From the NCBI GenBank assembly GCA_036785375.1, contig JAWMAR010000261.1, positions 930,001-994,000 on the forward strand: a stretch of 64,000 nt of DNA, in the 5' to 3' direction. The translations under genes were made by a program, and so were the position numbers. Shown piece after piece: positions 8,492 through 64,000 of the stretch. The DNA comes from Leucoraja ocellata (taxonomy: Eukaryota). Numbering within the stretch: the stretch's first letter is position 1; every line of letters starts with the position of its first letter. Under the pieces are notes generated by a model that worked only from the letters and a program-made list of their open reading frames with translations, was not told the DNA's origin and searched no databases.

Positions 8492-11400
8492 CTAAGAAAG
8501 TCAAATGAAAGATGCTTAGATTGTTGCACAGAATGTATATTCTAGAGGAAAATTATAATCATCTCTTTTTTGTGGTTGCAATAACAATCAAGCAACCACA
8601 ACTATTCACAACCATTACATCTTGGACCTGATGTTTGATTAAAAGTGAAGTTACTCATAGATTTCATAATCACACAGTGTGAAAACAGGCCCTTAAGTCC
8701 ACCTTGCCTACACAGACCAATGTGTTTCATCCATACTAGTCCCACCTACCCGCGTTTGGCCCGCATCCCTCCAAACCTGTCCTATTCACCTGTCTAAATG
8801 TTTCATAAACTTTGGGATAGTCCCTGCCTCAACTAGCTCCTTTGTGTGAAAAATGTTACCCCTAACGTTCCTATTAAATCTTCCCATCCCTCACCTTAAA
8901 CCTGTGTCCTCTGGTTCTCGATTCAACTACTCTGGCCAACAGACTCTGTGTATCTACCCAATCTCATGAATGTGTACACCTCTATAAGATCACCACGCAA
9001 CTTCCTGCGCTCCAAGGAATGACTATCAGTGATTCCTTCTTCCACAGGATTTCCTGAAGTCCACACAGATGGTGCTTTGGTGGACAAATATTTAAATCAG
9101 GGCAACTTGAAGGCGTATAGTCAGATATCACGGGGATGAGACTAAACAAATATTTTCCCCACACACACAGTTTAAAATAAGCCATGAGAAGTGTGGTAAA
9201 GTTCAAACAGGTTTGAGAAAGTCACACTCTATGTTTGGTCATGCTGTTTCGTTTATTTTAGAGATACAGCACGGAAACAAGCCCTTCAGCCCATCGAGTC
9301 CCCGCCAACCAGCGATCCCTGCACACCAGAGACAATTTCCATTTTTACCAAAGCTAATGAGCCTACAAATACGTACATCTTTGGAGTGTGGGAGGAAACC
9401 GGAACACCCGGAGAAAACCCACGCAGGTCACGGGAAGAACGCACAAATTCCACAGCATTGAAACATAGAAAATAGGTGCAGGAGTATGCCATTCGGCCCT
9501 TAATAAGCACGATAACATCCAAGTAAGCTCTGAACTAGACAGGCTTGGGGGCACTGGCTTTGTCTTTTTGCACTATCATATTCAATATGATCATGGCTGA
9601 TCATCCAACTCTGTATCCTGTACCTGCCTTCTCTCCATACCCCCTGATCCCTTTAGCCACAAGGGCCACATCTAACTCCCTCTTAAATATAGCCAATGAA
9701 CTGGCCTCAACTACCTTCTGTGGCAGAGAATTCCAGAGATTCACCACTCTCTGTGTGAAAAATGTTTTCCTCATCTCGGTCCTAAAGGAAATCCCCCTTA
9801 TCCTTAAACTGTGACCCCTTGTTCTGGACCTCCCCAACATCGGGAACAATCTTCCTGCATCTAGCCTGTCAAACCCCTTAAGAATTTTGTAAGTTTCTAT
9901 AAGATCCCCCCTCAATCTTCTACATTCTAGCGAGTACACGCCGAGTCTATCCAGTCTTTCTTCATATGAAAGTCCTGACATCCCAGCAGCTGTGGTCAGG
10001 ATGGAACCCGAGTCTCTGGTGCTGTAAGGCAGCAACTCTACCGCTGCGCCACCGTATACATCTTGCCTGTATACATTTCAGCGTTCCTCACCTGGACTAA
10101 AGAGTACGATTGCTTTCAGGTAGGCGTACTCGTATCCATCCAGAGTTAGTTTGACCATGCTGTTGCAGAACTCCTGCAGCTTCCAGATGTGTTCCATCAC
10201 CACTTTCACTCGATCTGCCGACAATTTATCTGTTTATTAAAAAAACAAAGATCATCACGACGCAACCTCCAAATAGACTGGTTCAACAGAAACAAGTCAT
10301 CGTGCTGCAAATACTTGACACGGTTTACAGGAGTCGCTGCCTCAAAAAGCAGCCGGCATCATCAGAGACCTACACCACCCTGGCCACACTCTTATTTCAC
10401 TCCTGCCATCGGGAAGATATAGGAGCCTGGAAACTGTAACATCCAGGATCAGGATCAGCTTCTTCCCTCCAGCCATCAAGTTATAAAGCACGATAACATC
10501 CAAGTAAGCTAGGAACTAGATAGGCTTGAGGGGCACTGGCTTTGTCTTTTTGCACTATCATTGTTTGTTTGTTATGTGTGTTAGTATATTGTTCACAGAG
10601 CACTATCTTTACATATTCTGTCATGCTGCTGCAAGGAAGAATTTAATTGTTGTGTTGGGACATGTGACAATAAAACACTCTTGACAATACAACGATACTG
10701 AACCACAGCACATTTTGTCGTCAGCCTAATTTATCCATTTCCGCCACCCCTTCTGATTATGCTGCTCCACAGAGACGAAACCTCTTTTGTGAACTACTCT
10801 TGCATTTCCTCAAGTGTTCTTTTGCATCCTCACAACTTAAGGTGGGCGCTCCCAGTCCGGTAAAACATGCCAAAGGTTTACAATAGGACACTGGACGCTA
10901 ATCCTACCCCGTTGCTGAATACCTTCCAGTAATTGAAATAATAAATGGACAATTATATTTATTCATTCATGCGAGTGAAGACTAATTTGCTGCACAGCTC
11001 TCCCACAGTTTAACAAAGGGCTTTTGGTTCCTAAAGAACCATTTGTTGTGCAAATATTTATGTTGCAATAGGTACAGTGATCCCTTTTATTTGTGTGGGG
11101 AATACCAGCTGCCGTGGACGGTGAGAAGAGAAGTCAGGAGCTAGTCAATCCCCTCCCGGAAAGGATGCAGCAAATCAAAAGCACACCATGCTAGTTTGAT
11201 GAGCTGAAGCATACAGATCATCGAGAGGCAACTGTGGCCAGATAGAAGAACACAGATGGAATCCTCCCCCTCCCGTGTCATTTAAAATAGTGTTTAAGAA
11301 GGAACTGCAGATGCTGGAAAATCAAAGGTACACAAAAATGCTGGAGAAATTCAGTGGGTGCAGCAGCATCGATGGAGCGAAGGAAATAGGCAACGTTTCG

Positions 11401-14400
11401 GGCCCCGAAACGTTGTCTATTTCCTTCGCTCTATAGATGCTGTTGCACCCACTGAGTTTCTCCAGCATTTTTGTGTACCTTCATTTAAAATAGCGAATAT
11501 ATTTAACAGATTCCTTCCTGTTAACTCTGTCAAAAAAGACTTACAATGTTAAGGATCTACAGTGTTCTCCATAATGTTTGGGACAAAGACACAGCAGTCA
11601 TTTATTTGCCTCTGTACTCTGTACAATTTGAGATTTGTAATTAAAAAATCACATGGGGTTAAAATGCAGAGTCAGATGTTATTAAAGGCCATTTTTATAT
11701 ATTTTGGTTTCATCATGTAGAAATTACAGCTGTGTTTATACATAGTCCCCCCATTTCAGGGCACCATAATGTTTGGGACACATGGCTTCACAGGTGTTTG
11801 TAATTGCTCAGGTGTGTTTAATTGCCTCCTTAATGCAGGTATAACAGAGCTCTCAGCACCTGGTCTTTCCTCTAGACTTTTCATCACCTTTGGAAACTTT
11901 TATTGCTGTTTATCAACATGAGGACCAAAATTGTGCCAATGAAAGTCAAATAAGCCATTATGAGACTGAGAAACAAGAATAAAACTGTTACGCATCAGCC
12001 AAAATTAGGCTTACCAAAATCAACTGTTTGGAATATCATTAAGAAGAAAGAGAACACTGGTGAGCTTACTAATCGCAGGGACTGGCAGGCCAAGGAAGAC
12101 CTCGACAGCTGATGCCAGAAGAATTCTCTCTATAATAACGAAAAATCCCCAAACACCTGTCCGACAGATCAGAAACACTCTTCAGGAGTCGGGTGTGGAT
12201 TTGTCAATGACCACTGTCTGCAGAAGAGTTCATGAACAGTAATACAGAGGCTACACTGCAAGATGCAAACCACTGGTTAGCCGCAAAAATAGGATGGCCA
12301 GGTTACAGTTTGCCAAGAAGTACTTAAAAGAGCAACCACAGTTCTGGAAAAGGGTCTTGTGGACAGATGAGATGAAGATTAACTTATATCAGAGTGATGG
12401 CAAGAGCAAAGTATGGAAGAGAGAAGGAACTGCCCAAGATCCAAAGCATACCACCTCCTCTGTGAAACACTATGGTGGGGATGTTAACGTTGTCCGGCCT
12501 CAAAACATTGTCCGGCGGTTCATTCTACAGCAAGACAATGATCCCAGGTGACTTTTCAGGTCAGGATCCTTCTTCAAACTGATTCAGCTGCGAGTTCAAA
12601 GTCCCATAATAGCAAGCCGTGTAACCGAATTTCACATAATTGGAGCCTGAGCCAGAAAAGTATCTTTAAGGAAACGGGACCAGCAACAATCACAGCTGGT
12701 TGATGGAACCTCCTGGGTGGCAGCAGTAGTGTTGCAGTCTTACAGCGCCAGAGACCCAGGTTCAGTCCTGACTACGGGTGCTGTTTGTACGTTCTCCCTG
12801 TGACCATGTGGGCTTTTTCAGGTTGCTCCAGTTTCCTCCCACATTCCAAAGACGTGCAGGTTTGTAGGTTAATTGGCTTCTGTAAATTGTCCCTAGAAAG
12901 TAGAATAGAACTAGTGTATGAGCTAATTGTTGGGACGGTGCAGACTCGGTGGGCCAAAGGCCACAGTTCCACGCTGTATCTTGAAACTAAACTAAAACTA
13001 AACTGAGTTGAGATTTATTTTGGGGCGATCAGGTGTGATGTGGAGTTTCAGCTCCACACCAGGTGAAGACATGGGCTTCTCCAATCATACGCAAATGGCC
13101 TCTAACTTTATTATGATCCTCCTTGTCCCAAACTATCCCACCTGCAAAGTGCCGGAGGAGCTCGGCAGGTCAGGCAGCATCTGTGGAGGTAATGGGCAGG
13201 CAACGCTTTGGGCCAGGTCCCTTCTTCAGACATGGTGTAGGGGAGAAAGCTGGAAATGAAAGGTGGGAGTGGGGCTGAAACTTGGCAAGTGATAGCTGGA
13301 TACAGGCGAGGAAGGGGGTCACAATTCGCAGATGCGTGGAGATAATGAGAAGGAAGCAAAAGGGTGTCAGGTAGGGGAAGACGAAGATGTGAAATGTGAT
13401 GATGATGGCAAGAATAAGAGTGGAAGGGGATGGAGAAAGGAAAAGAAAATATGGGACTTGGGGATGGAAAGAAGGTTACGGGAGGGGGAGAAAGGAGAAA
13501 TATGGCTGGGGTGGTGGGAGAGATGGGTGGGCATTGGAGTGGGGTGGGGCAGGGGGAAGAGTGAGGGGATGAGGGTGGGGGGGGGGAAGGGTTACTTGAA
13601 ATTGGAGAATTCAATGCTCATACATTGGACTGTAAGTTACCCGTGGAATATGAAGTGCTATTCTTCCACTTTGTGTGTGGCATCACGCTGGCAATGGAGA
13701 AGGCCAAGAACAGAAAGGTCAGTTTAGGATAGAAAAGAGAGCAAAAATAGTTGGCAACCGTGAGATCCAGCAGGCCTTGTTGGCCAGAGGACAAATGTTT
13801 GATGAAATGGTTGTCTAGTCAATACTTGATCTCTCCGATGAAGGAGGCCACATCGGGGGCACTGAATGCAATAGAAGAGGTTGGAGGAGGTGAGTGTGAA
13901 ATTCTGTCTCATCTCAATGGGTTGTTTGTGGTCCCTGGATGGAACTGAGAGATGAGGTCATAGTCATACTGCACGAAACAGGCCCTTTGGCCCAACTTGC
14001 CGATGCCAACCAAGATGCTCCATCTATTCTAGTCATCTATTCTAGGCCCACTTATCTACATTTAGCAATTATCCCTTTAAACCTTTCCCATCCATATACC
14101 TGTCTATGTCTTTGAATGTTAAACAGTACTAGCCTCAACTACTTCCTCGGGCAGTACGCTCCATGTACACACTGTATTAAATAATTGCCCCTCGGGTTCT
14201 TATTAAATCTTTTCCCTTGCACTTTAAACGTTTCCTCTGGTTATTGATTCCCCTACTCTTCACCCTAGGGTCTTCTACACATTGTCTGAGGAAACAATCC
14301 AGAACACATTTGACAAATTCCACCTAGTCTAAGCCCTTGACACTGTAGCAGTCCCAGTCTATATTGGGAAAGTTAAAACCTCTACTGTGACAACCCTATT

Positions 14401-17400: not shown

Positions 17401-20400
17401 TCTAATGTTTTCCTCTCCATTTTTGTTCTATTCATATTGATTCCTTTATTCTCTTCCTGTACTGAGAGATTGGATGCAATTATTTGTAATGTGTCACTTA
17501 CGTTTTATCAATTACGTCTCCAGGGGCCTAAATCACCGCTCACCACTTCCATTCTTCTAAAAACTTTAGAAATGTCTCTTATAACTCACACAAGATTTTT
17601 AAATGATATATTTTAAATTCCTATTGCCACATTAATTCCCCTCTCTAGTTGATGCTGTCTCCCAGCTTTGATTTCCACTACTCTTTGCATTTATAATCCC
17701 AGATACACCATCATACATTTCGAAGACAAACTTTTTCATTTCTTGTACCACCCGATGGTACAGCATTGCAGTGCTGACGTGGGGACTATTAGTTCATGGC
17801 ATAGCACCAGAACTCACACATGCATTACAGGATTTTATAGGGAGCATATATACATGTTTTGTAACTGTGAGGTACAAAACTGCAAAGTATGCATGCATTA
17901 CCAATCAGAGCAGCATTTTAAATGCCACCTTAATCTATCATATCACATTTCACAGCCGGCACAACGACATTGCTTAACGGCACAGCATATCACAGCACAC
18001 ACATGCTCTACAATTCTATGATACAGCATTTCAGAACACACATGAATCAACCGTTTGAAGATTAGCTCCCTGCCAACCTTGCTGGAGACTTGTTTGTAGG
18101 TGGTTTACGATTGCTGTGAGTATGGTCGATAAATTCATCACTTGGGAACACTGGGCAAGACCAAGTGTAAAGAGTTCATTCCAACAAGCGCGTACCAAAG
18201 CTGTATTATTGTCCGGCCTGTGGGAAAAGATAAGCATGTTTTAATTCTTAGTCCTCATTAAAATTGTGATACTGAAAGAACATTATATCATAAATAAACT
18301 TCGGTGTGAATCGCAATGAATCGGTGTTTACGAAGGAACCGCAGATGCTGGTTTAAATCGAAGACAGACACAAAATGCTGGAGTAACTCAGCGGGACAGG
18401 CAGCATCTCTGGACAGAAGGAATAGGTGACAATTCGGGTCTAGACCCTTCTTCAAACTGACGTCAGGGGAGTGGGTGGTGCATAGATAAGGAAGTGTGTA
18501 GATAAGGACGTGTAAAGTGTGAAAACAGGACAAAGGGAATAGAGATCAAGGAAAATGTAGAATAGATCATTGTTAGTTGGGAGAAGGTAACAACAAAGCA
18601 AACAGAGATAAAATGTAGTCGGAGACCGTAAGACTGGTCGGAGAACTCGGAAGGGGTAGGGGATGGAGCGAGAGTGAAAGCAAGGGTTACTTTAAGAGAG
18701 AGAAGTCAGTGTTCATACCGCTGGGGTGTAAACTGCCCAAGCGAAATACGAGGTGCTGTTTCTCCAATTTGCGCTGGGCCTCACTCTGACAATGGAGGAG
18801 GCCCAGGACAGAAAGGTCAGTGTGGGAATGGGAGGGGGGAGTTGAAGTGTTTAGCAACCGGGAGATCAGGTAGGTTTAGGCAGACTGAGTGGAGGTGTTC
18901 AGCGAAATGATCTGTGCTTGATCTCGCCGATGTACAGAGGGAGTTCCTGTCTGACCAATTTGCATTTTTCAAAGGAGATACCAATAAATACACATGAGAG
19001 CAATGTAACTGAGAGAGTATACATGTACTTCTGTGAGTTCTTTAATAAGTTCCCACATGCAAAACTGGTCCAGAGGGTTAGAAACATTGGGATCCAAGCT
19101 AAGTTGCCAAATTGGATCCAAAATTGGCTAGGAAATAGGGGGCAAGTTGCTTTTGTGACAGGAAGCAAATTTGAGTAGTGCAGGGACCTTTACTGTTTGT
19201 TATAATCATAAAATCAGTATGATTTGGATGATATGAAAAATGGTTGTGTTGTTGGTAGTGAGGAGGGTAGTCTTAGGCTAGACAGTCATAGTGATACATC
19301 GTGGAAACAGGCCTTTTGGTCCAACTTGCCCACACCGGCCAACATGTTCCGGCTACACTGGTCCCCCCTGTCAGCATTTGGTCCATATCCCTCCAAACCT
19401 GTCCTATCCATGTACCTGTCTAACTGCTTCTTAAGTATTGGGATAGTCCCTGCCTCGACTACCTCTTGTGGCAGCTTGTTCCATGCACCCACCACCCTTT
19501 GTGTGAAAAAGTTACCCCTCAGATTCCTATTAAATCTTTTCTCCTTCACCTTGAACATATGTCCTCTGGTCACACTATAATTAATTAATTTCTAAGACAG
19601 GCAGAACAATGGTAGATCAAATGTAATCTTGGCAAGTATAGTTTGGGAGGAGTAACAAGGCTCGGACATATACATTGATCAATTGGGCATTAGAGAGCAC
19701 ACGTCGTTCCTGGGTAACAAATTGGCTGTGTTTTTATGTTGATTTTGCCATGTTGGGAAATCAACAAAATTCACGATATAGTAAGCATACCACCTAAGTA
19801 TGGTAATGAAAGGCAGCAAAAATAACACGACTCATAACAATCAACAATGAGAGAGAGAGAGCGAGAGAGAGAGCGAGAGCGAGTGATCGAGAGAGAGAGG
19901 AATGTAGTTCTACAGGACGAAACGGATGTACGTACCAGAGTTCTTTAACATAATAACATTATAGGAACTCAAGTGTATGTACGGATGTCTATGAATTGGG
20001 CATTTGTAACCAGGGACTGTCTGGTGTACCAAAAACAACCTGGTACTCAACCCATCAAAGACAAAAGAACTGGTCGTTGACTTCAGGAGGAAGAGGAGAG
20101 AGGAACCTGCTCCCTTATACATCAAAGGAGACATGGTGGAGAGAGTCACTGGCTTTAAGTTCCTGGGAATAAACATCTCCCAGGACCTCAAATGGCAAAT
20201 GAACACCGTCACTCTCGTGAAGAAGTCACATCAGCGGCTGTATTTCCGTAGGTCTCTGCGGAGAGCAAACGTCTCACAGCCGCTGCTGCTGTCCTTCTAC
20301 CGATGCGCCGTGGAAAGTTTCCTCTCCTATGGAATCCTGGTGTGGTTTGCTAGCTGCACTGTGGCTGAGAGGAGGGCGCTGCAGGGAATTATAAAAACTG

Positions 20401-23400
20401 CACAGAGCATTACAAACGCCCAACTGCCCTCCTTGGATGATGTATATATAGGGCCCGATGCTTGAGCCGGGCCACAAATATCAAGCAGGACAACTCCCAC
20501 CCTGCCAACCACCTTTTCACTCTGCTACCCTCTGGGAGGCGATTCAGGTCTCTGAAGGCTCATTAAAAAATAGTTTCTACCCATGTGCGATAAAAGAACT
20601 TAATTCCAACAGAGAACACTGGGGAAGCAAAATGTAATTCCAAGAAATGCCGCCAAATTCTTTTTAAATACTTATTTATTATTTTACTAATAAGTGTACG
20701 TATGTGTCAATGGTTGTCGTGTTTGTATTTTTTTAACCGGAGGAGATGTAATAGAATTTTGTTGCACAGTATTGTCGAATGACAATAAACGTATTCATCA
20801 TCATTGTATTGAGAACAGAAGGACCTTGGTGAAGATGGCATTACAAGTAGATAAGGGAGTGAAGGAGGCATATGGTATTACTTGTGTTCATTAGCCAGGC
20901 AGCAGAATATGGTATGGTGCAACAGAGGTTAAGGTACAACTTTTAAGACAATGGTTTTATAATGAGACTTGAGAGAGGCATAAATAGGGTAGGTAAGTGC
21001 CATAAATAGGGTAGATCGTACAAACCTTTCCTCCATACTACAGGTGGCTAAAACTAGAAAAGACAGATTTAATGCATGGGGTGGTACGTTTAGAAGGTTT
21101 AAAATGAATCCATTTTTCACCCAGAAGTTAGTTGGAAACTGGACCCACTTGCTCAGTGGGCAGTGAAGGCAGAGACACATGTAACATTTAAGTATCTGGA
21201 GAAGCACTTGAATTGTCATGGAACAGAAGGCCATGGACGGTGATAAATGGGATTAGTATAGATAGATACCTATGGTCGGCATGGAAGTGTTGGGCCAAAG
21301 GAACTGCATCTGAACTGTATGATTTTATGACTATGTAATATTCTGAAGACCCCTTCCACCCCATGCAACGGACTGTTCCAGCTGCCACGGTCAGGCAAAC
21401 GCCTCCGTTGCCATGCTGTGAGAACGGAGAGGATGAGAAGGAGTTTCTTCCCAGAGGCCATTAGGACTGTAAACTCCTATTTCACCAGGGACTAACTTTA
21501 CTGTACCACTCTACTGCTGTGTGGTGTCTTTTTAAAATTGCTGTTTTTTTCTTTTTTTTCCTCCCACAAATATGTAATATGTGATTCTGTTCCATTCTGT
21601 TTTGTAGTTTTTTTGCACAATCCGCAAACATTGCCACTTTTCATTTCACTGCACATCTCGTATGTGTATGTGACGAATAAACCTGACCTGACAAGTACAG
21701 CCCATGACTGTGCAACGGGTATATATAAACTTATATATATTCTGACATGTATATAGAAATTTGAGTAAAGATGGACCTCAAGCTGCTAAATACCAATTCA
21801 TGACACCGTACAATATTGGTCGCCCTAATGAATTCTCTTAGAAAAGGCACCTGCAAACCGCTGATCTGTTTGAACTTATAAAAGTATTTCGTTAATTTTC
21901 CATCAAGGATCCAAACTTCATTAAAAATGCAAGAATACAGTTACACTGTAAAATACTAATTTGGATCCTGAAATTTATAAGCAAATTCCAGCGAATAGTC
22001 AGAATGGTATCATGTGTGGTGGCCTTACAGAGACATGGCGGATCTGCAGAGAGAAGAACAAAACTGTGCACTGTAGCTCACGGTATGGAAACGCTGTACA
22101 TACAAGAGTGGCACAGTGGCGCAGCTGTAGAGCTACGGCCTTACAGCGCCAGAGCCCCGGGTTTGAATCCGACTACGGGTGCGTGTGGTACCTGGTTTGT
22201 ACGTTCTCCCCGTGACCTGCGTGGGTTCTCTCAGAGATCTTCAATTTCCTCCCACACTCCAAAGACATACAGGTTTGTAGGTTAATTAGCTTGGTATAAA
22301 TGCAAAATTAGCCGTAGTGTGCATTGGGTAGTGTCAATACGTGGGGGGTCGCTGGTCGGTGCGGACATCTCCGATGACCTCTCTTGGACCCACAATACCT
22401 TAACTCTGGTCAAGAAGGCTCACCAACATCTCTTCTTCCTGAGGAGACTGAAGAAGGTCCATCTGTCTCCTCAGATCCTGGTGAACTTCTACCGCTGCAC
22501 CATCGAGAGCATCCTTACCAACTGTATCACAGTATGGTACGGCAACTGCTCCGTCTCTGACCGGAAAGCACTGCAGAGGGTGGTGAAAATTGCCCAACGC
22601 ATCACCGGTTCCTTGCTCCCCTCCATTGAGTCTGTCCAAGGCAAGCGTTGTCTGCGGAGGGCGCTCAGCAATGCCAAGGACTGCTCTCACCCCAGCCATG
22701 GACTGTTTACCCTCCTACCATCCGGGAGGCGCTACAGGTCTCTCCATTGTCGGACCAGCAGGTCCAGGAACAGCTTCATCCCTGCGGCTGTCGCACTACT
22801 CAACAATGTACCTTGGTGGCTGCCAATCACCCCCCCCCCCCCCCCCGGACACTCCTCCCACAGGAAAAAGAAGTCTATGACTGTATGCATGTAAATAGAT
22901 TTATTTATTGAAATCATATTCTATGTCGCTCTTCCAGGGAGATGCTAATTACATTTCGTTGTCTCTGTACTGTACACTGACAACGACAATTACAGTTGAA
23001 TCTGAATCTGAATCGGGTGGGCCGAAGGGCCTGTATCTCTAAACTAGAAACTAAACTAGATACGTGCACGTCACCATAGCATTAAATGACAAATTGAAAC
23101 ACATGATTGTTAAAACTTGATCACTAACCCAAGAGCCTGGAAGGCTGGAATAGATCTTGCCCAATGCATGGAAAGGAACAATAATCTTGATGCAGACTCG
23201 CAGATATAGTGCACATTCAGGTACTCTGGCATTGGTGACGGCATTGTTAGCTGCGGAGAGCAAAGAAGAACTTACTTGAACATCAAGTTATCCCATGACT
23301 GCAAAGTTTCATTTTGTAGTAGAGGAATGCAGTTTGCAGCTGGCAACAATATTCATAAAAGCAAATCACATTCTTGACAAGAATCAAACTGATTTCTCAC

Positions 23401-50400: not shown

Positions 50401-53400
50401 CCCATGTTCATTAATATTGATGTGCTGCTTTCTAGTTGGGGACTCACCAGCCAACATAATTATCCTATTTGTATTTATGTGCTGGTTACCAAGTAGTCAT
50501 ATCTAATAAATCTATTAATCGAGAAAATAACAAATATTTCTGCAAATATACCATTTCTTGCCAGCTTTTCAGCATTCCTACCAACCCAGGGTGTCTAAAT
50601 GTCTGCACAGTATTCAAAATATTACCTCAGAAATGATTGCAATGTTTGCAGGAAATCAATGTATCGTGACGGAAGGTACGTATTTTATTTATCTTTAAAA
50701 AAGTGTGGGAAATGGCACTGTTAAGTCTATGAAGCCATCAAGGCTTTTCCCCACTTATCTGAAGGACATCTTTGAATAATATATGCATTTCATTTATAAT
50801 TTCAATGCCTATTCATCACATTCAAATTGCTATTATTTCCCTTGTTCTTTTGGGTATCCAGTTCTCTTTTCTGCTTGCCCATAATGCCAACAATGACCTC
50901 TAAACCTAATCAACAGGCCAAGTAAAGTGGTTTAGTTATCACTAAAACTCAACACTAAGCGTGACACTTTGTATTGTAGCCTCCTAGATGCAAAGGCAAT
51001 GTAAATACACATTTCCTCGCTTGTTCTGTCTGGACACATTGTAAGAAGCTAAAAAATAAATTAACTATTTCACCGGAAAATTACGCACACAAATTTACAT
51101 TATTGCCAAAATGATCGGAAAGGTCACATCCTCGGTGTCAAATTGCCTCAACTCCAAACGCAGTTCGAGTATCTCTCCAGTTTTACCGTTTAATTTTCCA
51201 GCTATCGACAGCAAACAAACACATCAATATATATTGCTTTAAGGGAATCAAGGGATATGGAGTTTGTGCAGAAATGACTAGGTACACAAACAGCCATGAT
51301 CTTACTGAATGGTGGAGCAGTCACAAAGCACTGAGCGGCCTACACCTGGTTCTAAAATAAATGATATGTTCTTCAAGAAATGACACAAACAAAATTCTCA
51401 TGAAAAGTAACATACAGTTAAACTGCTTTTATTTAAGTTACAGGTCCAAAGGCAGCGTGCGATTTTAGGGAATTTACAGACCGATGATTGTTTCAAACAG
51501 GTGAGCTTTAAAGATTATTTAAGAGGTTGAGAGCAAAGTACTGAAGTTTAAGGAATAAATTCCAGACAGAGGCATTGCCATCAGTGATGTATTGATTAAA
51601 ATTGGGCATTCGCCAAAGGTCACAGTAGGAGCGTAGAGGTTATTAATGGTTGTGGGACAAAGACGACTCAAGAAATAAGAGCCCTTTCTAGCCCATCTGG
51701 CTGAGAAGGGACTTGCCATTCAAAACTACTATTTCATGTTAAAAGCTTATTGCAGTGGGAGACATGGCAATTCTTATACTATTTGGTCAAGCTCAAATAA
51801 AACCAGAAAATGCTGACAACTCTCAGCAGGTCAGGCAGCATCTATGGAACGAGAAACAGTTAAAACATTTCAAGTTGATAGTCCTTTGTTGTAAATGCAA
51901 AAATGAGGAAACAAATTATTTTTAAGTGAAAGCACAAAGCAAAAAGGATCCAAGGGCATCATGTTGGAGAGAAGATCAGAAAGTCAAGGTTAGCAAGCTT
52001 GGAATAGAAGTAGCAATAAATTCAACATCAAATGAAAATCCCCCACAAAAAATAGCAGGTGCTGGATATGTGAAATAAAGAGAGAAAATGCTGTAAATTC
52101 TCAGCCGGCCAGACATAGGACTTCCATTGGAAAAGAAAGACTGAGAAATGTGGGATGCTAAAACAAACCCATGAAGTCTGACAGAATCCTCGCCGTTCAT
52201 CTTCAGAATAGTTAAGTCAAGTTTATTTGTCACATACACATTCAAGATGTGCAGTGAAAACAAAATATGATGATATAGGCACTGAAATTAAGGAGGTGGA
52301 CTGATATAGTGTTTTGCACGTAAACATATTGCTAGAATATAATTAAATATTTTCAAGGTACTCTGAACAATGAGGGAAGACATTGCTTAGGGTCTGACTC
52401 TTGTTACCCATCGCTGTCTACTGACACAGTACTGGAGGGACCATCGTTTGCAACGGGGAAGGTCAAGTAACGTGTAGGAAGGACCTGCAAATGCTGGTTT
52501 ACCTGATGGTCACAAAATGCTGGAGTAACTTAGGCAGCATCTCTGGAGAGAAGGAATGGGTGACGTTTCGGGCCGAGACCCTTCCTCAGACCTGATACTG
52601 GTCGAGTGAGCACAGCCCAGGCAGTCTAACATTGGTGGTGCACCGATGTTAAGGCACTGTGGGGGGGGCGGGGGGGGGGGCAGAAAGCAACATTTGGAGA
52701 GTGGTTAATCAAGGACAGTCAGTGTCAGAAAATGCTGGAAACACTCATCAGGACAGTCAACATCTGTGTGAAGAGAAACAGGGATAGCATTCCATGTTGA
52801 AGATCCTTTGTCGGAACAGGGAAGGGGAGAAAATGAGTTAGTTAATTTACCAATAAGACTGAACTGAAGCCATTAAATATTAAAAGCATTCGGCAGGTCA
52901 GACAGCCAGCCTCTACAAAATGAAAAACTAAATGAGTTAATTAAATGAGTTAATGTTTCAGGTCAAAGACTCTTTGTTCCAACTGGAAAGGGCAGCAAAC
53001 AAATTAGTATTAAGCTGCAGGGAGGGTGGGCATGGGATGAATAGGATAAAAGGAATATGTCATGGGGTGAGCCCAGGATTGCCCTGGGGATAAAATGTAA
53101 CTGAGGTCATCTGGTCAATGGGTTAACCAGCAGAAAGAACATGACCTTTTATTTATCAAAGCTTTGAAATGAGTGCAGTTAGTGAGGGGCACAGGCAAAG
53201 GAATGGAAGAGTTGTGAAATACTGAGGCTGCAGGACATGCCCAGCAGGTCAAGTTGTTCTAACGGAGAGAGGAAAAACTGAGCCCTAACCACAGACCAAT
53301 GGTGAGGCTGGTTCTGACAGGAGACAGAAAGCAAGTTACCTGAAGTTGTGGAATTCAATATTGACGCCAGAAAGCTGCAATGGGCCCGGACAAAAGACGA

Positions 53401-56400
53401 GCTTACATTACAACAGCACAGAAGGCTGCTGACAACCGTGTGGGATGGACAATCCACATCTGCAGCTTCTGTGCTTAGAAAATTAAACTAAGGCAGTATT
53501 ACAAAATGCTAATACTTCCAGATGATACATTTACATATATTAATACATATCCATTACGTATCCCTACTGACTAATTGATTTTACGTTCCCATGAATCATG
53601 ATGCTACGATTTCAAAATCCACACTGACTTTCTCTGTTTGGCTTCAGCATACAAATGTTTGCAAATGTAATTGTCATTTTCTTTATAGACTGAGTTTGCT
53701 CAGCATTCATGCCTGATTTATTACTTTTACATTTAGCTAAAAGGCTTTATTCATATATTAGCCCAAAATATATAGCACTTTAAAACTTAGCATTCAACTA
53801 ACACCCCATGTCACATGCAATGAAGCATCAGAGTTACAGAAATTGGATAGCTCCATTCGTATTTGACAGAAGTATTTTTTAACAGCTAACAATTACTGCA
53901 ATTTTTATAAAGATCTTCTTAATAAAGATTTAAAGATTTAATTTTTTTTTATAAGATCTTCACTCCAGCTCTTTTACAGCACGAAAGGTTTTATTTTAGA
54001 TTCAGATTCAGATTCAGATTCAATTTTAATTGTCATTGTCAGTGTACAGTACAGAGGCAACAAAATGCATTTAGCATCTCCCTGGAAGAGCGACATAGCA
54101 AACGATTTGAATAAATAATTTAGAAAATGTAAGCAATAACATTTTTGAGTTTCATTGGCTAAATCCTCTGGGATTGTGTGCGTGGCCGCTGAGACAACAA
54201 AGAGGGACCATTGGCAACTACATTGACCACTTTGTAATCTGTCAACGCTCTATACGTGGCGACTCTTTGCATACCTTGTGTATGGTATGCAGAACAAGGA
54301 ATTTCACTGTGGCATGTGATAATAAAGTATCAATCCATGTTCAGCCCTATTCTTCCAATAACAAACCAGCAAGAGATATCCCTGGCTTCCATTATTGGAA
54401 CCTCAATGCTCATTACACACTGCTTTTAGATACAAATTCTAAAACGTAACCTTTGCAGTCTTCTCAACTCTCTGTTAAGTTATAGCGTGCTGCAAATACA
54501 ACTATCACCTCAACCTAATGCATTTACTCCTATTGGCATGAGCTTTGGGAATTCCAATGCTTGCTTGAATAATCCTCATGTGACACACCTAGATCAAAAC
54601 TAACCCAATATTACAAATAAGCACATTTTAACATCCTCGCAGTTACACAATTCCTGAGATGCTTCTCTGCTTGTAGAAATTAACCTTGTATTTCATAGCA
54701 ACAGAGTAAGTTAACCTTCAAGATTTTTTCAATTGTAAAAAAACAAATATATATTTAATGCTGAGCACCGCACAATCTCCAAAATTTCTCAACCTAACCT
54801 TAAATTTGTTGCAGGGAACCAAAGAACTGCAGGTGCTAGAATCGTGAGCAAAATACAAAGTGCTGGAGTAACTCAGCGGGTCAGGCAGCATCGCTGGAGG
54901 ACATAATTGTTGACATTTCCGGTTGAGACTTCCATCGCTATGATGAAGGGTCCCATCCCATAATGTCGCCTATCCATGCCCGCCATGGATGCTGCCTGAC
55001 CCGCTGAGTTACTCCAGCGCTTTGTGTTTTGCTTTAAATTTGCTGCCACAGACTACAAATAGGACCCTATACTTAAAATCAACATCAACTTTAACGGGGC
55101 ATCTCACAGCATGCAGTTTTCTCTTTCCCCAAAATGATGTTTTTCAACCATTCAACATATTGCATGGAAACTGCTTGATAAAGACAGCTAGGTCAGAGAC
55201 TAGGTAACTCTTCCTCCGTGCTGCTGTGATCATCTACTGGGTGGGAGAATCATGCAGACGGATCCTGCAGTTTAACTTGAAAACACTATCCAAGGCTGAT
55301 TTTGAACATGACTACGAGTACAAGGCCAAATAGCTGATTAGTTATTTGGACAGTGCAAGATTTTTGAGGAACTGGATTGGAAAATGGAGCATTAAAAATT
55401 GAAGATTCGGAGATGGCAAAGATTCAGCAAGTTCAACATTATTGGAGGAAATTATTTTTTATCTCTGATTTAATGAGGATTTCGATTTAATTTCCCCTAA
55501 TATTTACTGGAACTTATTCAATGCAAAAGGTTTGTTAGGCGTGTCCCAGATGGTTTCCCAAAACAGCGTGTGGATAGTCCAAGTCGAGGAGGGATAATAC
55601 AGGCCCTTGTATTGGGAAAAGAGCTTAGCCTGGTGCCCGGCATTTTATTGGAAGAGCATTTAAGGAGCAGTGAACACATCTCTGGAGAGAAGGAATGGGT
55701 GACGTTTCGTGTCGAGACCCTTGGAGGATAGTGAGATCAGTGTGGAAGCACTAATATGCCAGGGCATGTTGAGATCTGCAATTCCTTGTTTCTACATTGA
55801 GATTAAGGAGGTAGTCTTGTGGTTCTTGATGAGCATCATGGTGGATAAATGCTCAGTGCGTTTATCCCATGTTATTCATAGAGGCAAGAGAGGAGATTGC
55901 CGGAGCCTTGATGAAGATCTTTTTTGTCTTCTCCAGCCTCAGGCGAGGTCCCAGAGGACTGGAGAGTAGCCAACCTTGTTCCTTTTGTCTAAGAAGGGAA
56001 GTAGAGATAATTCAGGAAATTAAAGGCCAATGAGCCTCACATTGGTGGCAGGGAAGCTATTGAAGAGGATACTTCGGGATAGGATTTATTTCCTTTTGGA
56101 AGTGTATGGGCAATTTAGACGCAGTCAGCATGGCTTTGTTAGCAGGTCATATCTTATGAACATGATTAGGTTTNNNNNNNNNNNNNNNNNNNNNNNNNNN
56201 NNNNNNNNNNNNNNNNNNNNNNNNNNNNNNNNNNNNNNNNNNNNNNNNNNNNNNNNNNNNNNNNNNNNNNNNNNNNNNNNNNNNNNNNNNNNNNNNNNNN
56301 NNNNNNNNNNNNNNNNNNNNNNNNNNNNNNNNNNNNNNNNNNNNNNNNNNNNNNNNNNNNNNNNNNNNNNGGTAAAATCGAAGGTAGACACAAAATGCTG

Positions 56401-56889: not shown

Positions 56890-57102
56890 AGACACCCGAT
56901 GCATATGAACCTGTCATGGTCAGAAAGCACCATTTAGCAAAGAGTACAAAACCCCAGCGGAACAAGTATTCAACCAAGATAGACACACAAAGCTGGTGGA
57001 ACTCAGCCGGTCAGGCAGCATCTCTGGAGAAAAGGAATAGGTGACGTTTCAGGTCTCGACCTGTCTTCAGTCTGAAGAAGGGTCTCGACCTGAAACGCCT
57101 CT

Positions 57103-57635
57103 ATTCCATGGAGCGTAGGAGGATGAGGGGAGATCTTTTGGAGGTATACAAAATCATGAGAGGAAAAGATCGCTTAGATGCACAGAATCTATTACCCAGA
57201 GTAAGGGGATTGAGGACCATAGGACATAGGTTCAAGGTGAAGGGGAAAAGATTTAATAGCAATCCAAGTGATAACGTTTGTGATAAGGGGGGGTTGGAGC
57301 AGTCGCTCTCTCCAGCTCTCCAGCTATATGGGACTAGGGGAGATTATGTGTTCGGCACGAACTAGAAGGGTCGAGATGGCCTGTTTCCGTGCTGTTATAT
57401 GGTTATATGGTTTTCACACAGAGGGTGGTGGGTGTATAGAACAAGCTGCCAGAGGAGGCTGGGACTATCCCATCCTTTAAGAAACAGTTGGACAGGTACA
57501 TAGTTAAGACAGATTTGGTGGGTTATGGACCAAGCACAGGCAGGTGGGACTAGTGTAGCTGGGACATTGTTGGCCGGTGTGGGCGAGTTGGGCCAAAGGG
57601 CCAATTTCCACACTGTATCACTCTATGACTCTATG
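57103..57635 (+). mobile_element. CR1 3' fragment with a nested second CR1 tip (about 57280-57410)
   Basis: [16 protein letters not shown] motif; nested tip ends in a (ttatatgg)2 tail. Confidence 0.8.
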
Positions 57636-57660
57636 CCTATTAAATCAGTTTTAAAATTAA

Positions 57661-58350
57661 CTAGACCAAGTGCAGACCCGTTGGGCCTGTTCCCCCAACG
57701 TGCAGTTGACGGGGGGGTGGGCTGCTCTATCTGCGGGGAGAGGGCGAGAGGAAGGAGAGGAAGGGGCAGAGAGGTGAAGGGGGGGGGGGGGGGGGGGGCG
57801 GGGGTTGGAGCAGTCGCTCTCTCCAGCTCCAGGCTTTGCTCGAGCCCAGGCAGCAGAATCCCCACCAGGCATGGACTGGAGAGGGGCCACGGGCGGGGAT
57901 AGACCTGAGGATGCCGAGCGAGGCGGCGGGCGGTCGTCGAACCGGGCTTTGCCCGCGGCGGCAGTCTCCGGAGAGGGAGAGGGAGAGACAGAGACAGAGA
58001 GACAGAGAGACAGAGAGACAGAGAGACAGAGAGACAGAGAGGGCAGAGACAGAGAGAGGGGGGAGACAGCTGGCGGTCGTGGGGCGGCTTCTCACGGCTG
58101 TTTTTAAATGGCATCTTTGAGGCGAGAGGCGGGTGCCAGCAGCCGTTATGGTCGCTGGCCAGCAGGAGGCGACAAAATGAGTGAATTGGGGGGGGGGGGG
58201 GGGAGAAGGATTTTATTAAAAATGTGTATATAAACACGACAAGATTTAATCAGGAATGGATACTTGGAATGAAAAGTGAAATCTCTACCGAAATGGAAAA
58301 AATCTCTGCGTTTTTGCGTGTGGTGTTGGCGTAGCAACGAATCAAAGGCT
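57661..58350 (-). mobile_element. Second non-autonomous Helitron family (5' end lost in gap)
   Basis: 3' terminus CTAG|T at 57661-57664 with subterminal hairpin CAGACCC-GTT-GGGCCTG, same geometry as the 2246 element; internal (GAGAGACA)n. Confidence 0.7.
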
Positions 58351-60285
58351 NNNNNNNNNNNNNNNNNNNNNNNNNNNNNNNNNNNNNNNNNNNNNNNNNN
58401 NNNNNNNNNNNNNNNNNNNNNNNNNNNNNNNNNNNNNNNNNNNNNNNNNNNNNNNNNNNNNNNNNNNNNNNNNNNNNNATAAGAAAAATACTTTAAGAAA
58501 AATTGTATGCATTCAGATTTTCAAATAAAATATTTGCTAATAGAATAAATCAGTCCATTGGATATATTTAATAGTTTATTTTTCATAATATCAAAAATTG
58601 TGCACTTCAATATTTTTGAGTGTGTATTCCTGATAACAGGAGATAGAAAACAAACCAGACAGCTGTCCCAACACCAATCCCATGAGTACTGATGTTGTTA
58701 CTACAAAATTAGTCTCAATATTCATGTATATTGGGGGCAATTAATCTTCAAACAATGCAGGTGGACAGATCTTAATATATTATAAAATAGGATAAATACA
58801 TTGTGTGTGCAATCAGATAACATTAAATATTTCCACAGAGTACAGCCCTGTAGACTGCCATAGGCAAGAAGAAACAGCTGTATAATTAGTGTCAAGATTA
58901 TTCTACATATGCAACATGCTGTCGTAATGGCCCATATACGAGAATAATTGCAAACTCAAAACCTATTACCACTCCCAAAGTGGCAAAAAAACAACTTACC
59001 TCCTACTTGTCCTCACAACGTTCTCAAGCTTTCATACGTCTTAATGCTACTTTTTCTCCCAATTACTTGTTTTTCAGCATGCCTAAGAGGAGGAAGAAAA
59101 TAACATTTTTTTTAAATGAGCAAATTGAAGATATATTACAACATTATTAAGATTGACACAAAAAGCTGGAGTAACTCAGCAGGACAGGCAGCATCTCTGG
59201 AGAGAGGAATGGGTGACCTTTCGGGTCGAGACCCTTCTTCAGACACGAAACGTCACCAATTCCTTCTCTCTTGAGATGCTGCATGTCATTTCTGGAGCTA
59301 ACAAGCTAACCAGCATCTGGAGTTCCTTCCTATACATCTCATTTAATTAAATGGACTTCAAAGTATACGTACATACTTTCTGTTACCACGTTCCTAGTTT
59401 CGCACTTGTTTTTGTTTTACATAGTTTTTTCTTAAATTTAAGAGATTAGATCTGTGGTCAAAATTCAGGTTGCATTGATGTGCAGCAAAGAATCAAATAT
59501 CCAGAAGTATAATGGAAAACAGAGTGAAAGTCAAAAACTGTTCATTCCAATATCCCAGCCCTCGTTCTGACCGAAAGTTGGGGGTGAGTGTTAGTGAACA
59601 CAAGCAGCTGGGACAGGCAGCATCTCTGGAGTGAAGGAATAGGTGACGTTTCGGGTTGAGACCCTTCTTCAGACTAGAGTCAGGGGAAAGGGAAATGAGA
59701 GATAGAGACGGTGAAGTGGAGAGATATAGAACAAAAGTAACGATGATACAGGAAACAGGCCATTGTTGGCTGTTTGCCAGGTGAGAACGAGAAGCTGGTG
59801 CAACTTGGTTTGTGGAGGGATGGAGAGAGAGAGGGAATGGACGGGAACAAAGGCAAGACATTACTTCAACCTACCAATCATGGTCATTAAATTGTACAAG
59901 ACAGAAATTAATATTTTTTTCCTTCCTCATATGCAAATGTAAATTTGCCTATGTTAAAATTAATTCGGCAATAAATCCAGAAATCACTGAATGAAATCCC
60001 CTGGCCACTTTCACAGTTCCAAGTTGTCTCTTCAATGGTTCAAGAGTCAAATTAACCCTGCTGGCATGTTTGCTCCCTCTTCTCTCTCCAGCTTTGTTAA
60101 GGTAGGGACATGCAGATAAGTGAAACCAATGGGGAGATGGCATATATTGGACAGGCAAAGCAAATGTTATACTGCCCAAGGTGAGAGTGAGAAGAGTTTA
60201 ACTCACTTGGCATTCGAGAATACTCGCAATCCAGGGTAGCAGTGCATGGCAGCTGCAATAAACCAACCAGTGGCAAGACCAGCTT

Positions 60286-60925: not shown

Positions 60926-61555
60926 TAGAAACATAGACAATAGGTGCAGGAGGAGGCCATTCGGCCCTTCGGGCCAGCACCACCATTCATTGTGATCATG
61001 GCTGATCGTCCCCTATCAATAACCCATGCCTGCCTTCTCCCCATATCTTTTGACTCCATTAGCCCCTAGAGCTCTATCTAACTCTCTCTTAAATCCATCC
61101 AGTGATTTGGCCTCTACTGCCCTCTGTGGCAGGGAATTCCACAAATTGACAACTCTCTGGGTGAAAACGTTGTTTCTCACCTCAGTCTTAAATGACCTCT
61201 CCTTTATTCTAAGACTGTGGCCCCTGGTTCTGGACTTGCCCAACATTGGGAACATTTTTCCAGAATCTAGCTTGTCCAGTCCTTTTAAAATTTTATATGT
61301 TTCTATAAGATCCCCCCTCATCCTTCTAAAATCCAGTGAATACAAGCCTAGTCTTTTCAATCTTTCCTCATATGACAGTCCCGCCATCCAGGGATCAATC
61401 TTGTGAACCTACGCTGCACTGCCTCAATCACAAGGAATGAGATTCTCAAATTAGGAGACCAAAACTGCATACAAAACTCCAGATGTGGTCTCACCAGAGC
61501 CCTATACAACTACAGAAGAACCTCTTTACTCCTATACTGAAATCCTCTTGTTGTG
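60926..61555 (-). mobile_element. CR1 3' fragment (young)
   Basis: ORF 61016..61387 [16 protein letters not shown]...[13 protein letters not shown]. Confidence 0.9.
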
Positions 61556-63192
61556 ACTCACCTCGCTCATGCTGACTGTGATGTACATCGACACTAATCC
61601 CATGTGCCTACATTAGACCTGTGTTCCTCCATGTCGTCCCTATCCAATTACCTGTTCAAATGCCTTTTAAGAATTGTAATTCTATCTGCCACTTCATCTG
61701 ACATCTATTTCCAGGCATTCACCAGTGTGTGAGAAAAAATTACCCCTCAGATCTCCTTTAAATTTCTCCCTTCTCATCTTAAATCTGTGCCCTTTAGTCT
61801 TCCCTGCCCACAAAAAACTCTCGACTGTCTTTGCCCTTCAAGATTGTATAAAGCTCCACAAGGTCTTGCCTCAGTTACCTACGTTCCAGTGAGAATACAC
61901 CCAGCCTACCCAATCTCTCTTTGTAACAAGTCTTCAATTCTAGACGACATCCACGTGAATCTCTTACGCAACCTCTCTGTTACCACATCCTTCCTGAAAC
62001 GTGGCAACAAGCACAGTTCACAATACTCTTACTGAAGTCTGACCAATACAACATGACATACCAACTATCACACAATGCCTCAGCCTACGAAGGCAAGTAT
62101 AGAAAATGCCCTTTTCACCACCCCATCCACGTGTTACCACCTTCAATAAACAATGGACTTGCACCCCAAGGTCTCCGTGTACATAATTGCTCCTCAAGTC
62201 CCTGCCATTTATTCTTTGTGTCCTACCAGAATTTGACCTTCCAGATATGATCTCACTGTTATCTTGATTCAATTCCATCTGCTAACACAGCTGCCAACCT
62301 TCCATCTCATCTTTGTCCTGCTGTACCAAGGCAAACTTCTTCATTATCTTCGACTCCATCAATGTTTGCACCATCTGCATAATCCACCCTTCAATTTCAT
62401 TCAAGTCATATATACGTTAGAAACAGTTCCCCGCACTGATCGCTGATATGCCACTTGAAGATGTCCAGTCATAAAAGCAGCCATCCACCCATCTGCCCCG
62501 TATCACATCTCCAACAGTAGTTGTCCACAACTAAAACACAGCAAGATGTGGGACAAAGTGTCCAAAGTTCAGGCACAAGTTGCTAGCTGTCCTCTTAACT
62601 ATTTCTGTCTTTTAAACATTGATCTAGCATTATGCAGATATGAACCTTCTGCGTAAAGGTTGCAATGTATTAGACACCCATACAATGCAATTTCTGCCAT
62701 TAACAGTTGTTCATGCATGCTTGCTTTGGCTAGGTTTTTTAGTTTTGAGATACAACATGGAAACAGGCCCTTCGGCCCAATGAAACCATGTCACCAATTG
62801 ATCACCTGCTCACACTAGTTCTATGTTATTCCTACGGAAGCCAATTAATCTACAAACCCGCACGGCTTTAGGATGTGGGAGGATCTGGAAGAAACCCTCA
62901 TCATGCAAACTCCACACAGACAGCATCCAAAGTCAGGATTGAACCCAGATCTCTAGCACTGTGATGCATCAGTTCAACAGGCTCTATGCCACCCTTCTAG
63001 TGGACAATGAGTCAGAAACAACATACACCAATTGTTCTCTTCTTTGTGACAGAAGGGAAAATTGGCTCTGGAATGACAGAATAGCTAGCCTGCATTTCAA
63101 CATCAGGTGTCATTCAGTGACTAATGCTACCCTGCTGTGGCAAGCACAGGGTCAAACTTTGTTTAAAGCTCATTGCCAAATAATGTCTCAAC

Positions 63193-63353
63193 GTGAGACA
63201 CAAAGTGCTGAAGCAAAGAAGGGTCAGAAATAGGGTCCCGACCTGAAATGTCAACTGTCCATGTGCTCCAGATGTGTTGCCTGATCCAAGAAGTTATTCC
63301 AGCACTTTGTGTCTTTTGTTTTGGTAAACCAGCACCTGCAGTTCCTTGTTTTG
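63193..63353. mobile_element. Decayed fold-back Penelope-derived mini-element with 12-bp TSD
   Basis: TAATGTCTCAAC at 63181-63192 and 63354-63365. Confidence 0.72.
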
Positions 63354-64000
63354 TAATGTCTCAACATTCTTTGACAAGCATACATGAAAATAGCTTGAAG
63401 CTTCCAGATAGAAATGGCTCATTGCTGGTGTTTGCTTTCCCCATAAGCAAAGATCCCAGTCACATTTATACATTTTGTTCCTGTATCCTTTGACTTCAAA
63501 CATCAAATCAATTTAATCTTGAATTTTGACAGCTAATGATTTTAACTGCAAACCATGAAAATTAGTACCCTAAATGCTTAACTTACATCCATATTCTATG
63601 AAATTGAACCAAATAATTTGTTCATCAAACTTCCATGTTCAAACACTATCCAACAGAAACTGCAGCCAGCTACTTTTGTGCTACCTTTTGCTGCTGCTAT
63701 TTCCTCTAACAGTTGAGTCATATTTGATCATCTAAGATGAGCCGACCCCCAACCCCTCAAAAAAACCAAACAATTTGCAGTCTTCCCTCATCCAACTGAA
63801 AGTCCCAAGTGTAAAGAATAAATTACTTACATCCTAAAAATGTGAAGATCAGATTTTTGCACCTCTGATGTGTTGGGAATGACTGCCAAAAATGAATTAA
63901 GTGTGAAACTCTTAGCAGTTTCAGGGACTTCAAATTAACTCAGTCATGTAGCTTGCTTCGAAGGTAGACAAAAATGCTGGAGAAACTCAGCGGGTGCAGC

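Follow-up and report, generated by a model that had tools for sequence, protein, structure and literature searches.

How does a Penelope-like element (PLE) come to leave many short, palindromic, non-coding copies that look like the work of a DNA transposon? The question is raised by a stretch of 64,000 nt from Leucoraja ocellata (GCA_036785375.1, contig JAWMAR010000261.1, positions 930,001-994,000, forward strand), hereafter the window, in which a preliminary description had pointed to seven short insertions and a longer one as a family of mini-retroelements. Our analysis indicates that these hairpins are probably dead-end insertion products of autonomous Neptune-type PLEs, remade many times by several subfamilies, in which two coupled target-primed complementary DNAs (cDNAs) are joined via palindromes in the terminal repeat (pLTR) of the element.

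Hairpin insertions and their source element

Copies of the pLTR were mapped by BLAST of the PLE copy at 37158-38961 against the window, and with a profile built from 15 end copies; the same PLE copy is the coordinate reference for all arm ends. Its last ~135 nt recur throughout the window, with 46 profile matches against a single marginal one (E 0.48) in the reversed window. The eight insertions named in the preliminary description were all confirmed at the positions given there, each made of two arms from the 3' end of the element, the first on the minus strand and the second, directly adjoining, on the plus strand. They measure 161-221 bp, plus one of 361 bp, and occur about once per 8 kb. 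Each has its own target-site duplication (TSD), exact in five and with one mismatch in three, with lengths of 11, 12, 13, 13, 15, 15, 15 and 16 bp. All nine TSD scores (eight hairpins and the coding copy) were at least 10, whereas the best of 400 random placements scored 9. The description of these duplications as 12-16 bp long and mostly AT-rich is correct in giving every copy its own TSD but needs amending in range (11-16 bp) and in composition, the AT bias being mild (84 of 124 bases, or 68%, against 57% in the window).

Four further head-to-head pairs lack a convincing TSD. Among neighbouring profile matches no more than 30 nt apart (n=11), ten are head-to-head, one is tandem owing to a nested insertion and none is tail-to-tail; head-to-head pairs account for 24 of the 46 pLTR matches. 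When folded as RNA against dinucleotide shuffles, nine of 11 pairs gave z from -5.9 to -21.7, and the pairs at 63k and 7.5k only -2.0. Insertion length forms a gradient from 161 bp through 361 bp and ~575 bp to copies bearing open reading frames (ORFs). The unpaired ~30-40 nt at one end of a hairpin is the known PLE tail, and arms are called tailed or tailless below; copies are cited by approximate position (11k, 24k and so on).

11291-11480: hairpin, left arm tailed (minus strand), right tailless; TSD 11278-11290 and 11481-11493, 13 bp, exact; arms identical at 72/77 positions
23992-24169: hairpin, left tailless, right tailed; TSD 23977-23991 and 24170-24184, 15 bp, exact; arms identical at 64/68
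26714-26928: hairpin, left tailed, right tailless, apex just 5' of the hammerhead core; TSD 26698-26713 and 26929-26944, 16 bp, exact; arms identical at 73/82
27759-27937: hairpin, left tailless, right tailed, 3-nt apex overlap; TSD 27744-27758 and 27938-27952, 15 bp with one mismatch (21 bp with two)
30505-30865: asymmetric copy, left arm short and tailed, right tailless with at least 130 nt of extra 3' untranslated region (UTR); TSD 30494-30504 and 30866-30876, 11 bp, exact
44774-44951: hairpin, left tailless, short and internally deleted, right tailed; TSD 44759-44773 and 44952-44966, 15 bp, one mismatch; nested in an older pLTR-like relative
54813-55033: older hairpin, left tailed, right tailless; TSD 54800-54812 and 55034-55046, 13 bp, one mismatch; arms identical at 68/89
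63193-63353: hairpin, left tailless and 24 nt long, right tailed; TSD 63181-63192 and 63354-63365, 12 bp, exact; weak fold (z -2.0)
34162-34345 (approximate): old hairpin, left tailed; borderline 13-bp TSD with two mismatches (null fraction 0.04)
59149-59338: hairpin, left tailless, right tailed; no significant TSD
56965-57107: head-to-head pair with a 4-nt apex overlap, right arm only ~37 nt, outer ends indistinct; no TSD
7476-8049 (approximate): long head-to-head copy of ~575 bp, both arms with 3' UTR, tail on the right; no significant TSD

Older, divergent pLTR relatives, all on the minus strand, lie at 44703-44774, 51784-51879, 52050-52115 and 52724-52792, and it is in one of these that the 44.8k hairpin is nested.

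Arm sequence is joined to PLE coding sequence in three copies, and therefore represents the pLTR; together with the BLAST and profile matches, this bears out the earlier assignment of the arms to a Penelope terminal repeat. Both hairpin arms are the 3' pLTR of a dead Neptune/Nematis-type PLE.

37158-38961, plus strand: dead PLE copy, 5'-truncated, with reverse transcriptase (RT), CX4CX2C linker, GIY-YIG endonuclease remnant, 3' UTR, pLTR, tail and 16 extra nt; TSD 37144-37157 and 38962-38975, 14 bp, exact
18325-18930, minus strand: truncated PLE copy with endonuclease end, 3' UTR, pLTR and tail; second link of pLTR to coding sequence
13145-13939, minus strand: a further truncated PLE copy, older, in which an endonuclease remnant and the pLTR survive; third such link
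38814-38841, plus strand: minimal type I hammerhead-like motif with core, extra A, 5-bp stem II, GAAA, 2-nt palindromic insert and UH

The copy at 37158-38961 had been introduced as a coding Penelope copy with a 14-bp TSD; the TSD is indeed exact, but coding integrity is gone, given the 5' truncation, frameshifts, loss of ~60 amino acids and deletion of the YIG of the endonuclease motif. It is dead and cannot be a master. Its RT gives a weak RVT_1 match (E 0.00037, below the curated cut-off), and tblastn alignments are collinear over RT and endonuclease, the best named relatives being bamboo-shark and whale-shark proteins. The source element has a PLE-type RT followed by a C-terminal GIY-YIG domain (its YIG deleted in this copy), the layout of endonuclease-bearing (EN+) PLEs. 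The CX4CX2C linker before the GIY-YIG fits the pattern CX2-5CxxC, a mark of the Neptune and Nematis clades. The element probably belongs to Neptune, judging from this linker and from the occurrence of Neptune in vertebrates rather than from an RT tree. The reference copy also runs 16 nt beyond the usual tail end (38946-38961), a pyrimidine-rich stretch plus CAG with no second match within the window, which perhaps represents what lies beyond the tail in a full-length element.

A descriptor scan for hammerhead-like motifs found four intact copies in the window, all within pLTRs, against 0.04 expected; none of the eight TSD-bounded hairpins has an intact one. The features of the motif agree with those listed by Cervera and De la Peña (Cervera 2014). 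Rfam returned no match at gathering score over the window and two chance-level matches on the pLTR, RNAalifold on 15 sense arms gave no consensus pairs, and folds of five single arms were no better than shuffles (z -1.3 to 1.3). Rfam and folding lent no support, so the motif is identified from the descriptor scan.

Arm ends and apex junctions

The 3' ends of the arms are confined to two sites ~37-40 nt apart in all subfamilies. They lie ~77-88 nt (site A) and 119-125 nt (site B) after stem II begins, and the 5' ends pile up upstream.

38898-38909, plus strand: site A, 3' end of tailless arms; putative upstream RT start site
38940-38946, plus strand: site B, 3' end of tailed arms; putative RT start site on the downstream side; the tail extends from A to B
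38807-38818, plus strand: zone in which arm 5' ends pile up; it overlaps a short palindrome, a word resembling an initiator and a pyrimidine tract with AG at its end

A tailed arm is always paired with a tailless one, in 8/8 TSD-bounded pairs and in 11/11 pairs with readable ends, for which independent 50:50 choice gives 0.0005. This agrees with EN+ PLEs, in which the tail is a 30-40 bp extension, often at one end only, beside an inverted 5'-truncated copy, according to the available text of Craig et al. 2021 (PMC8557442) and Arkhipova et al. 2013 (PMC3846280). Site A is also the end point of the single-arm copy 47986-48084, which has a borderline 7-bp TSD (null fraction 0.04), the best in a TSD scan of nine solo or long copies that found none convincing. 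Among pLTR matches outside the 12 pairs, 16 of 22, as a raw count, lie on the minus strand, the sense strand of the host gene described below.

The clustering of 5' ends was tested on 37 of the 46 matches, leaving out four weak ones, four divergent older relatives and one cut by the window end. Fifteen of the 37 fall in 38807-38818, where 1.8 are expected, and none of 20,000 simulations reached this number in any 12-nt window; 25 fall within 38807-38845. The tailed hairpin arms are all 107-139 nt long (n=10). End positions were read from local alignments, partly adjusted by hand. Very short arms are missed by the detection, which can account for a deficit downstream but not for the peak.

The pile-up zone contains palindromes of the pLTR itself, an initiator-like word and, in six of seven long copies, a pyrimidine tract ending in AG. 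In the Drosophila virilis PLE an intron ends at hammerhead helix I and transcription starts ~120 nt before that, and a splice acceptor is therefore as good a reading of the pile-up as a start site. A spliced template was considered and set aside, as the flanks upstream of four solo copies ending at the pile-up match no PLE sequence in the window, and no upstream exon was seen there. Solo copies may be collapsed hairpins, however, and for this reason cannot separate the causes of the pile-up.

The two arms of a pair do not follow a fixed order of length. Over ten pairs, the tailed arm reaches further 5' in four, the tailless arm at least 10 nt further in three (by 10, 21 and 138 nt at 27k, 59k and 30k, respectively), and the two end within 5 nt of each other in three. 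No two of the 12 apex junctions are identical. Short apex overlaps, of 3 nt at 27k and 4 nt at 57k by script and 3 nt at 59k by eye, are suggestive of joining via short palindromes. Short direct duplications of the hammerhead 5' end were also seen at the arm start at 47960-47995 (15 nt) and 63217-63236 (9 nt), which suggests RT slippage or re-priming in this zone.

Formation of the hairpins

Several lines of evidence favour repeated de novo formation over one amplifying family. The arms within a copy share a subfamily, with a pooled identity of 0.80 against 0.71 when arms are re-paired; 0/20,000 permutations were as high, and the result holds without CpG columns. At least four subfamily motif types were read by eye among the copies. 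In a tree of 26 of the 36 arms (ten short or deleted ones left out), neither tailed nor tailless arms cluster (seven changes for eight rows and seven for seven), and hairpins interleave with long copies. Within a three-copy subfamily, none of 22 variable columns separates tailed from tailless arms, and the 11k copy has two private variants, at reference positions 38877 and 38902, that are present in both its arms. Neither a shared apex junction nor arm-specific variants, as expected of a non-autonomous PLE family, were found in this small sample. Nested self-insertion was rejected as a source of hairpins, since a single TSD pair abuts both arms.

The preliminary description fares unevenly against these results. 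Its family of mini-retroelements does not hold up, given the four or more subfamily types and the grading into copies of 361 bp, of ~575 bp and with ORFs. The apex comparison it proposed spoke against an amplifying family, with the relation between 24k and 11k a possible exception. Its comparison of arms with subfamily gave a divided answer, in that arms do share a subfamily, yet the identity between the two arms of a copy is similar to, or lower than, that with the best other copy; strong homogenisation of arms was not seen. As for the suggestion of a stereotyped fold-back product formed anew at each insertion, recurrence is supported by the lack of shared apexes and of arm-class lineages, and the fold-back itself is not supported as worded, since a single snapped-back cDNA could give tailless arms that extend further 5' only if the apex was deleted later.

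The reading that we prefer would run as follows. The GIY-YIG endonuclease would nick both target strands 11-16 nt apart, as the TSDs indicate. Each target 3' end would then prime reverse transcription on pLTR RNA, one at site B to give the tailed arm and the other at site A to give the tailless arm, the two events being coupled. Both cDNAs would usually end at, or be trimmed to, the hammerhead-bearing 5' part of the pLTR, where the arm ends are found. The two antisense cDNAs would finally be joined 3' to 3', often via short palindromes of the pLTR, and host repair would fill in; joining is placed in short self-complementary words because these are the only way for two antisense strands to anneal. 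A longer cDNA in the same process may yield the 361-bp and 575-bp copies, as well as published long PLE copies with an inverted 5' arm. Here it is the double nicking, the double priming, the joining and the immobility of the copies that we infer. Biochemical precedent comes from an anole Poseidon element, for which the available text of Frangieh et al. 2024 (PMC11167929) reports that both target strands are cleaved and extended in vitro from two internal RT start sites.

The main alternative, to which we give a real but minor chance, is a de novo fold-back in which priming at site B yields a single cDNA that folds on itself at a pLTR palindrome, so that RT goes on to copy the cDNA it has just made; the second end would be set at site A by the endonuclease or by a block at the tail, and later deletions would blur the apex. 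Such a course would explain the strict tailed and tailless pairing without coupling two primers, and it suits the apexes that lie on pre-existing palindromes and the almost perfect symmetry of the 11k, 26k and 57k pairs. Self-priming and endonuclease resolution are moreover published readings, as far as the available text of PMC3846280 and PMC8557442 goes. Under a fold-back, however, the 5' reach of the tailed arm should never fall short of that of the tailless arm, as it does at 27k, 59k and 30k. One cDNA folding back on itself cannot supply the second arm with sequence missing from the first, and the two-way difference in 5' reach therefore favours two separately primed cDNAs. Nor would random later deletion favour the placing of the 30k tailed arm, whose end shares the hot zone (38807-38839) of the other nine, and the single-arm copy at 47986-48084, with its borderline TSD, ends at site A without a partner.

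The density of hairpins (eight TSD-bounded copies in 64 kb), the narrow length range of tailed arms and the common tailed-arm start and subfamily of 11k and 24k would also suit a few non-autonomous hairpin masters, one formed per subfamily and amplified in trans by PLE proteins, and with apexes that came to differ as unstable palindromes lost sequence after insertion; PLEs are known to have non-autonomous derivatives (Craig et al. 2021, PMC8557442, in the part available). We think this unlikely, in view of the 12 different apex junctions, the lack of arm-class variants, the private variants shared by both arms at 11k and tailless ends that vary by several bases inside one subfamily. It is also not evident how a hairpin RNA would stop at the far end of the arm, and the anole protein requires ORF RNA beyond the tail (the first 172 nt), which the hairpins lack, according to the available text of PMC11167929. 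Hairpins formed only after insertion, either as two independent adjacent insertions of pLTRs or from long inverted-repeat PLE copies that suffered internal deletion, would draw on the dense pLTR fragments (46 matches) and on the long inverted copies at 7.5k and 30k. Inverted repeats are deletion-prone, too. We nevertheless hold such an origin to be very improbable, as one TSD pair abuts both outer ends, the arms share a subfamily, close pairs are head-to-head in ten cases and tail-to-tail in none, and deletion of long copies would not place both breakpoints in a 40-nt zone unless palindromes drive it. [quoted passage not shown] The TSDs vary from 11 to 16 bp with no fixed, superfamily-specific length, the ends are asymmetric with a 30-40 nt tail at one end only, in three copies arm sequence runs on into PLE coding sequence, and a genuine MITE in the same window (29375-29669) has symmetric ends and a 3-bp TSD. 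DNA MITEs were rejected on the variable TSDs and asymmetric ends, and on this point the earlier view that the hairpins look retrotransposed rather than cut and pasted was upheld.

Several observations weigh against the coupled priming of two cDNAs and against its repetition de novo. All counts come from one window and from 8-12 hairpin copies. The scripted apex-overlap test, run on seven of the 12 junctions, gave at least 3 nt in two, 1 nt in two and no value in three, and there is filler or small duplication at the 34k, 54k and 63k junctions. Tree support is poor, with four of 23 branches well supported. Arms of ~100 nt are 6-38% diverged (arm-to-arm identity 0.62-0.94), which points to old insertions in several waves. 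Since palindromes can lose their centres after insertion, a difference between apexes carries little weight by itself; removal of 8 nt from an apex like that of 11k could have produced the 24k one, in which case these two copies could share a master. The copies at 37158-38961 and 18k have no inverted arm, so single-arm insertion also occurs. Published readings differ from ours as well, head-to-head junctions having been read as self-priming (Arkhipova et al. 2013, PMC3846280) and the tail ascribed to endonuclease resolution (Craig et al. 2021, PMC8557442) in the available parts of these papers, and the biochemical precedent is a Poseidon element, of another clade than the source element here.

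Beyond two coupled cDNAs, we tentatively raise a more specific reading, possible though well short of probable: the hairpins may be run-off, 'strong-stop-like' cDNAs that the genome has captured. Each transcript's first pLTR would serve as template, with priming from the two target nicks at two fixed sites, and the hairpins would be what Neptune retrotransposition most commonly yields among cartilaginous fishes. The pile-up position has the initiator-like word, but also a splice-acceptor-like signal and palindromes, and since these coincide the window cannot decide the matter. If the run-off reading is true, the element scatters very many intronic double-stranded RNA stems of 60-100 bp, possibly feeding editing or small-RNA silencing of the element.

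The later steps by which PLE inverted repeats and tails form are undefined, according to the available text of Craig et al. 2021 (PMC8557442) and Frangieh et al. 2024 (PMC11167929). In a minimal copy, ~200 bp include the TSD, the apex junction and both priming ends, and such copies offer a natural data set for the PLE insertion mechanism. At about one copy per 8 kb in the window, one shark or ray genome could be used to test twin priming against fold-back by counting. The two arms also provide an internal age estimate, like paired long terminal repeats, and in annotation such copies would be mistaken for MITEs.

Host gene context and comparison with known systems

A scan of 136 further open frames found two nuclear-receptor domain matches on the minus strand, at 30206-30424 and 18034-18240. 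They correspond to exons for a DNA-binding zinc finger (30209-30390) and for part of a ligand-binding domain (~18034-18240), and among solved structures are closest to NR2C2. The gene is of NR2C type (TR2/TR4), possibly NR2C1 rather than NR2C2. The 24k, 26k and 27k hairpins lie between the two exons, and the 30505-30865 copy ends 115 nt before the host splice acceptor. As predicted from sequence, hairpins in or near introns of such a gene would give the host pre-mRNA long double-stranded stems; inverted Penelope copies gave small interfering RNAs in Drosophila, according to the available text of PMC3681739.

Other features of the window include a GC-rich, low-complexity stretch at 57623-58249, whose long open frames match nothing in Pfam and which may belong to a promoter or a first exon, and fragments of a Tc1/Tc3-type transposase at 12009-12548. 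The MITE-like element at 29375-29669, inserted in a pLTR copy, has symmetric inverted ends of ~50 bp (96%) and a 3-bp TAA TSD, and judging by this TSD is presumably of PIF/Harbinger type. Further retrotransposon fragments at 972-1499, 9601-10077, 20010-20465, 22286-22894 and 41565-42477 are presumably LINE-like, judging by their motifs; Pfam matches to RVT_1 and ALKBH8_N occur at 20k, 22k and 42k.

The scheme that we propose resembles twin priming of L1 elements, in which both target nicks prime cDNA and leave a head-to-head junction with microhomology within an ordinary TSD. In L1 the inverted part comes from one RNA and does not overlap the rest, whereas here both arms copy the same stretch, and therefore either one RNA is read twice or two RNAs are used.

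Minimal hammerheads (Cervera 2014) share with the motif described here the core, the extra base before stem II, the G10.1-C11.1 pair, the 2-nt palindromic helix III insert and a 2-bp helix I as in D. virilis. Opposite-strand motif pairs lie 100-700 bp apart in that study; in the window, where the motif is known from sequence alone, the two abut at the apex or are cut through. Non-LTR retrozymes (bioRxiv 10.64898/2026.07.22.740005) are likewise short, non-coding pLTR derivatives with a type I hammerhead and depend on PLE proteins, but are head-to-tail tandems with intact ribozymes in the available description. The hairpins here are head-to-head and lack an intact motif in the eight TSD-bounded copies; with ten head-to-head close pairs and one tandem that is nested, identity with non-LTR retrozymes was rejected.

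PAc, the Poseidon element of Anolis carolinensis, is likewise reverse transcribed from two internal start sites that flank the tail, with both target strands cleaved and extended and with AT-rich targets (PMC11167929, in the part available). In that element RT starts 111-118 nt beyond the point at which hammerhead stem II begins (Frangieh et al. 2024, PMC11167929), and its hammerhead lies ~110-125 nt upstream of the distal RT start site, as here. It differs from the source element in lacking the CX2-5CxxC linker, and the available portions of that account describe neither short head-to-head genomic products nor a 5'-end pile-up at the ribozyme.

There is a close likeness to published EN+ PLE insertions with an inverted 5'-truncated copy (PMC8557442, PMC3846280; Schostak et al. 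2008, PMC2377424), which, in the parts of these accounts available, show the same head-to-head inverted pLTRs, tail at one end, palindromes or overlap at the inverted junction and one TSD around the unit. In Pen2a of Adineta vaga, for example, the inverted pLTR is the shorter one by 37 bp, with an overlap of 15 bp. What the preliminary description implied to be new is in these respects known, its unpaired arm being the PLE tail and the inverted truncated copy having been published. As far as those accounts go, the inverted arm flanks an ORF- or gene-bearing body, with TSDs of 8-10 bp, whereas here the whole insertion consists of two arms of ~25-140 nt with TSDs of 11-16 bp. A search of full-text literature, with Repbase and Dfam outside its scope, found no description of minimal, high-density hairpin copies, nor of an arm 5'-end pile-up at the hammerhead, universal tailed and tailless pairing or a longer 5' reach of the tailless arm. 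By that search, the new elements here are the minimal high-density form and the 5'-end pile-up at the ribozyme. The hairpins themselves look like a minimal form of the published PLE architecture rather than a separate mobile family.

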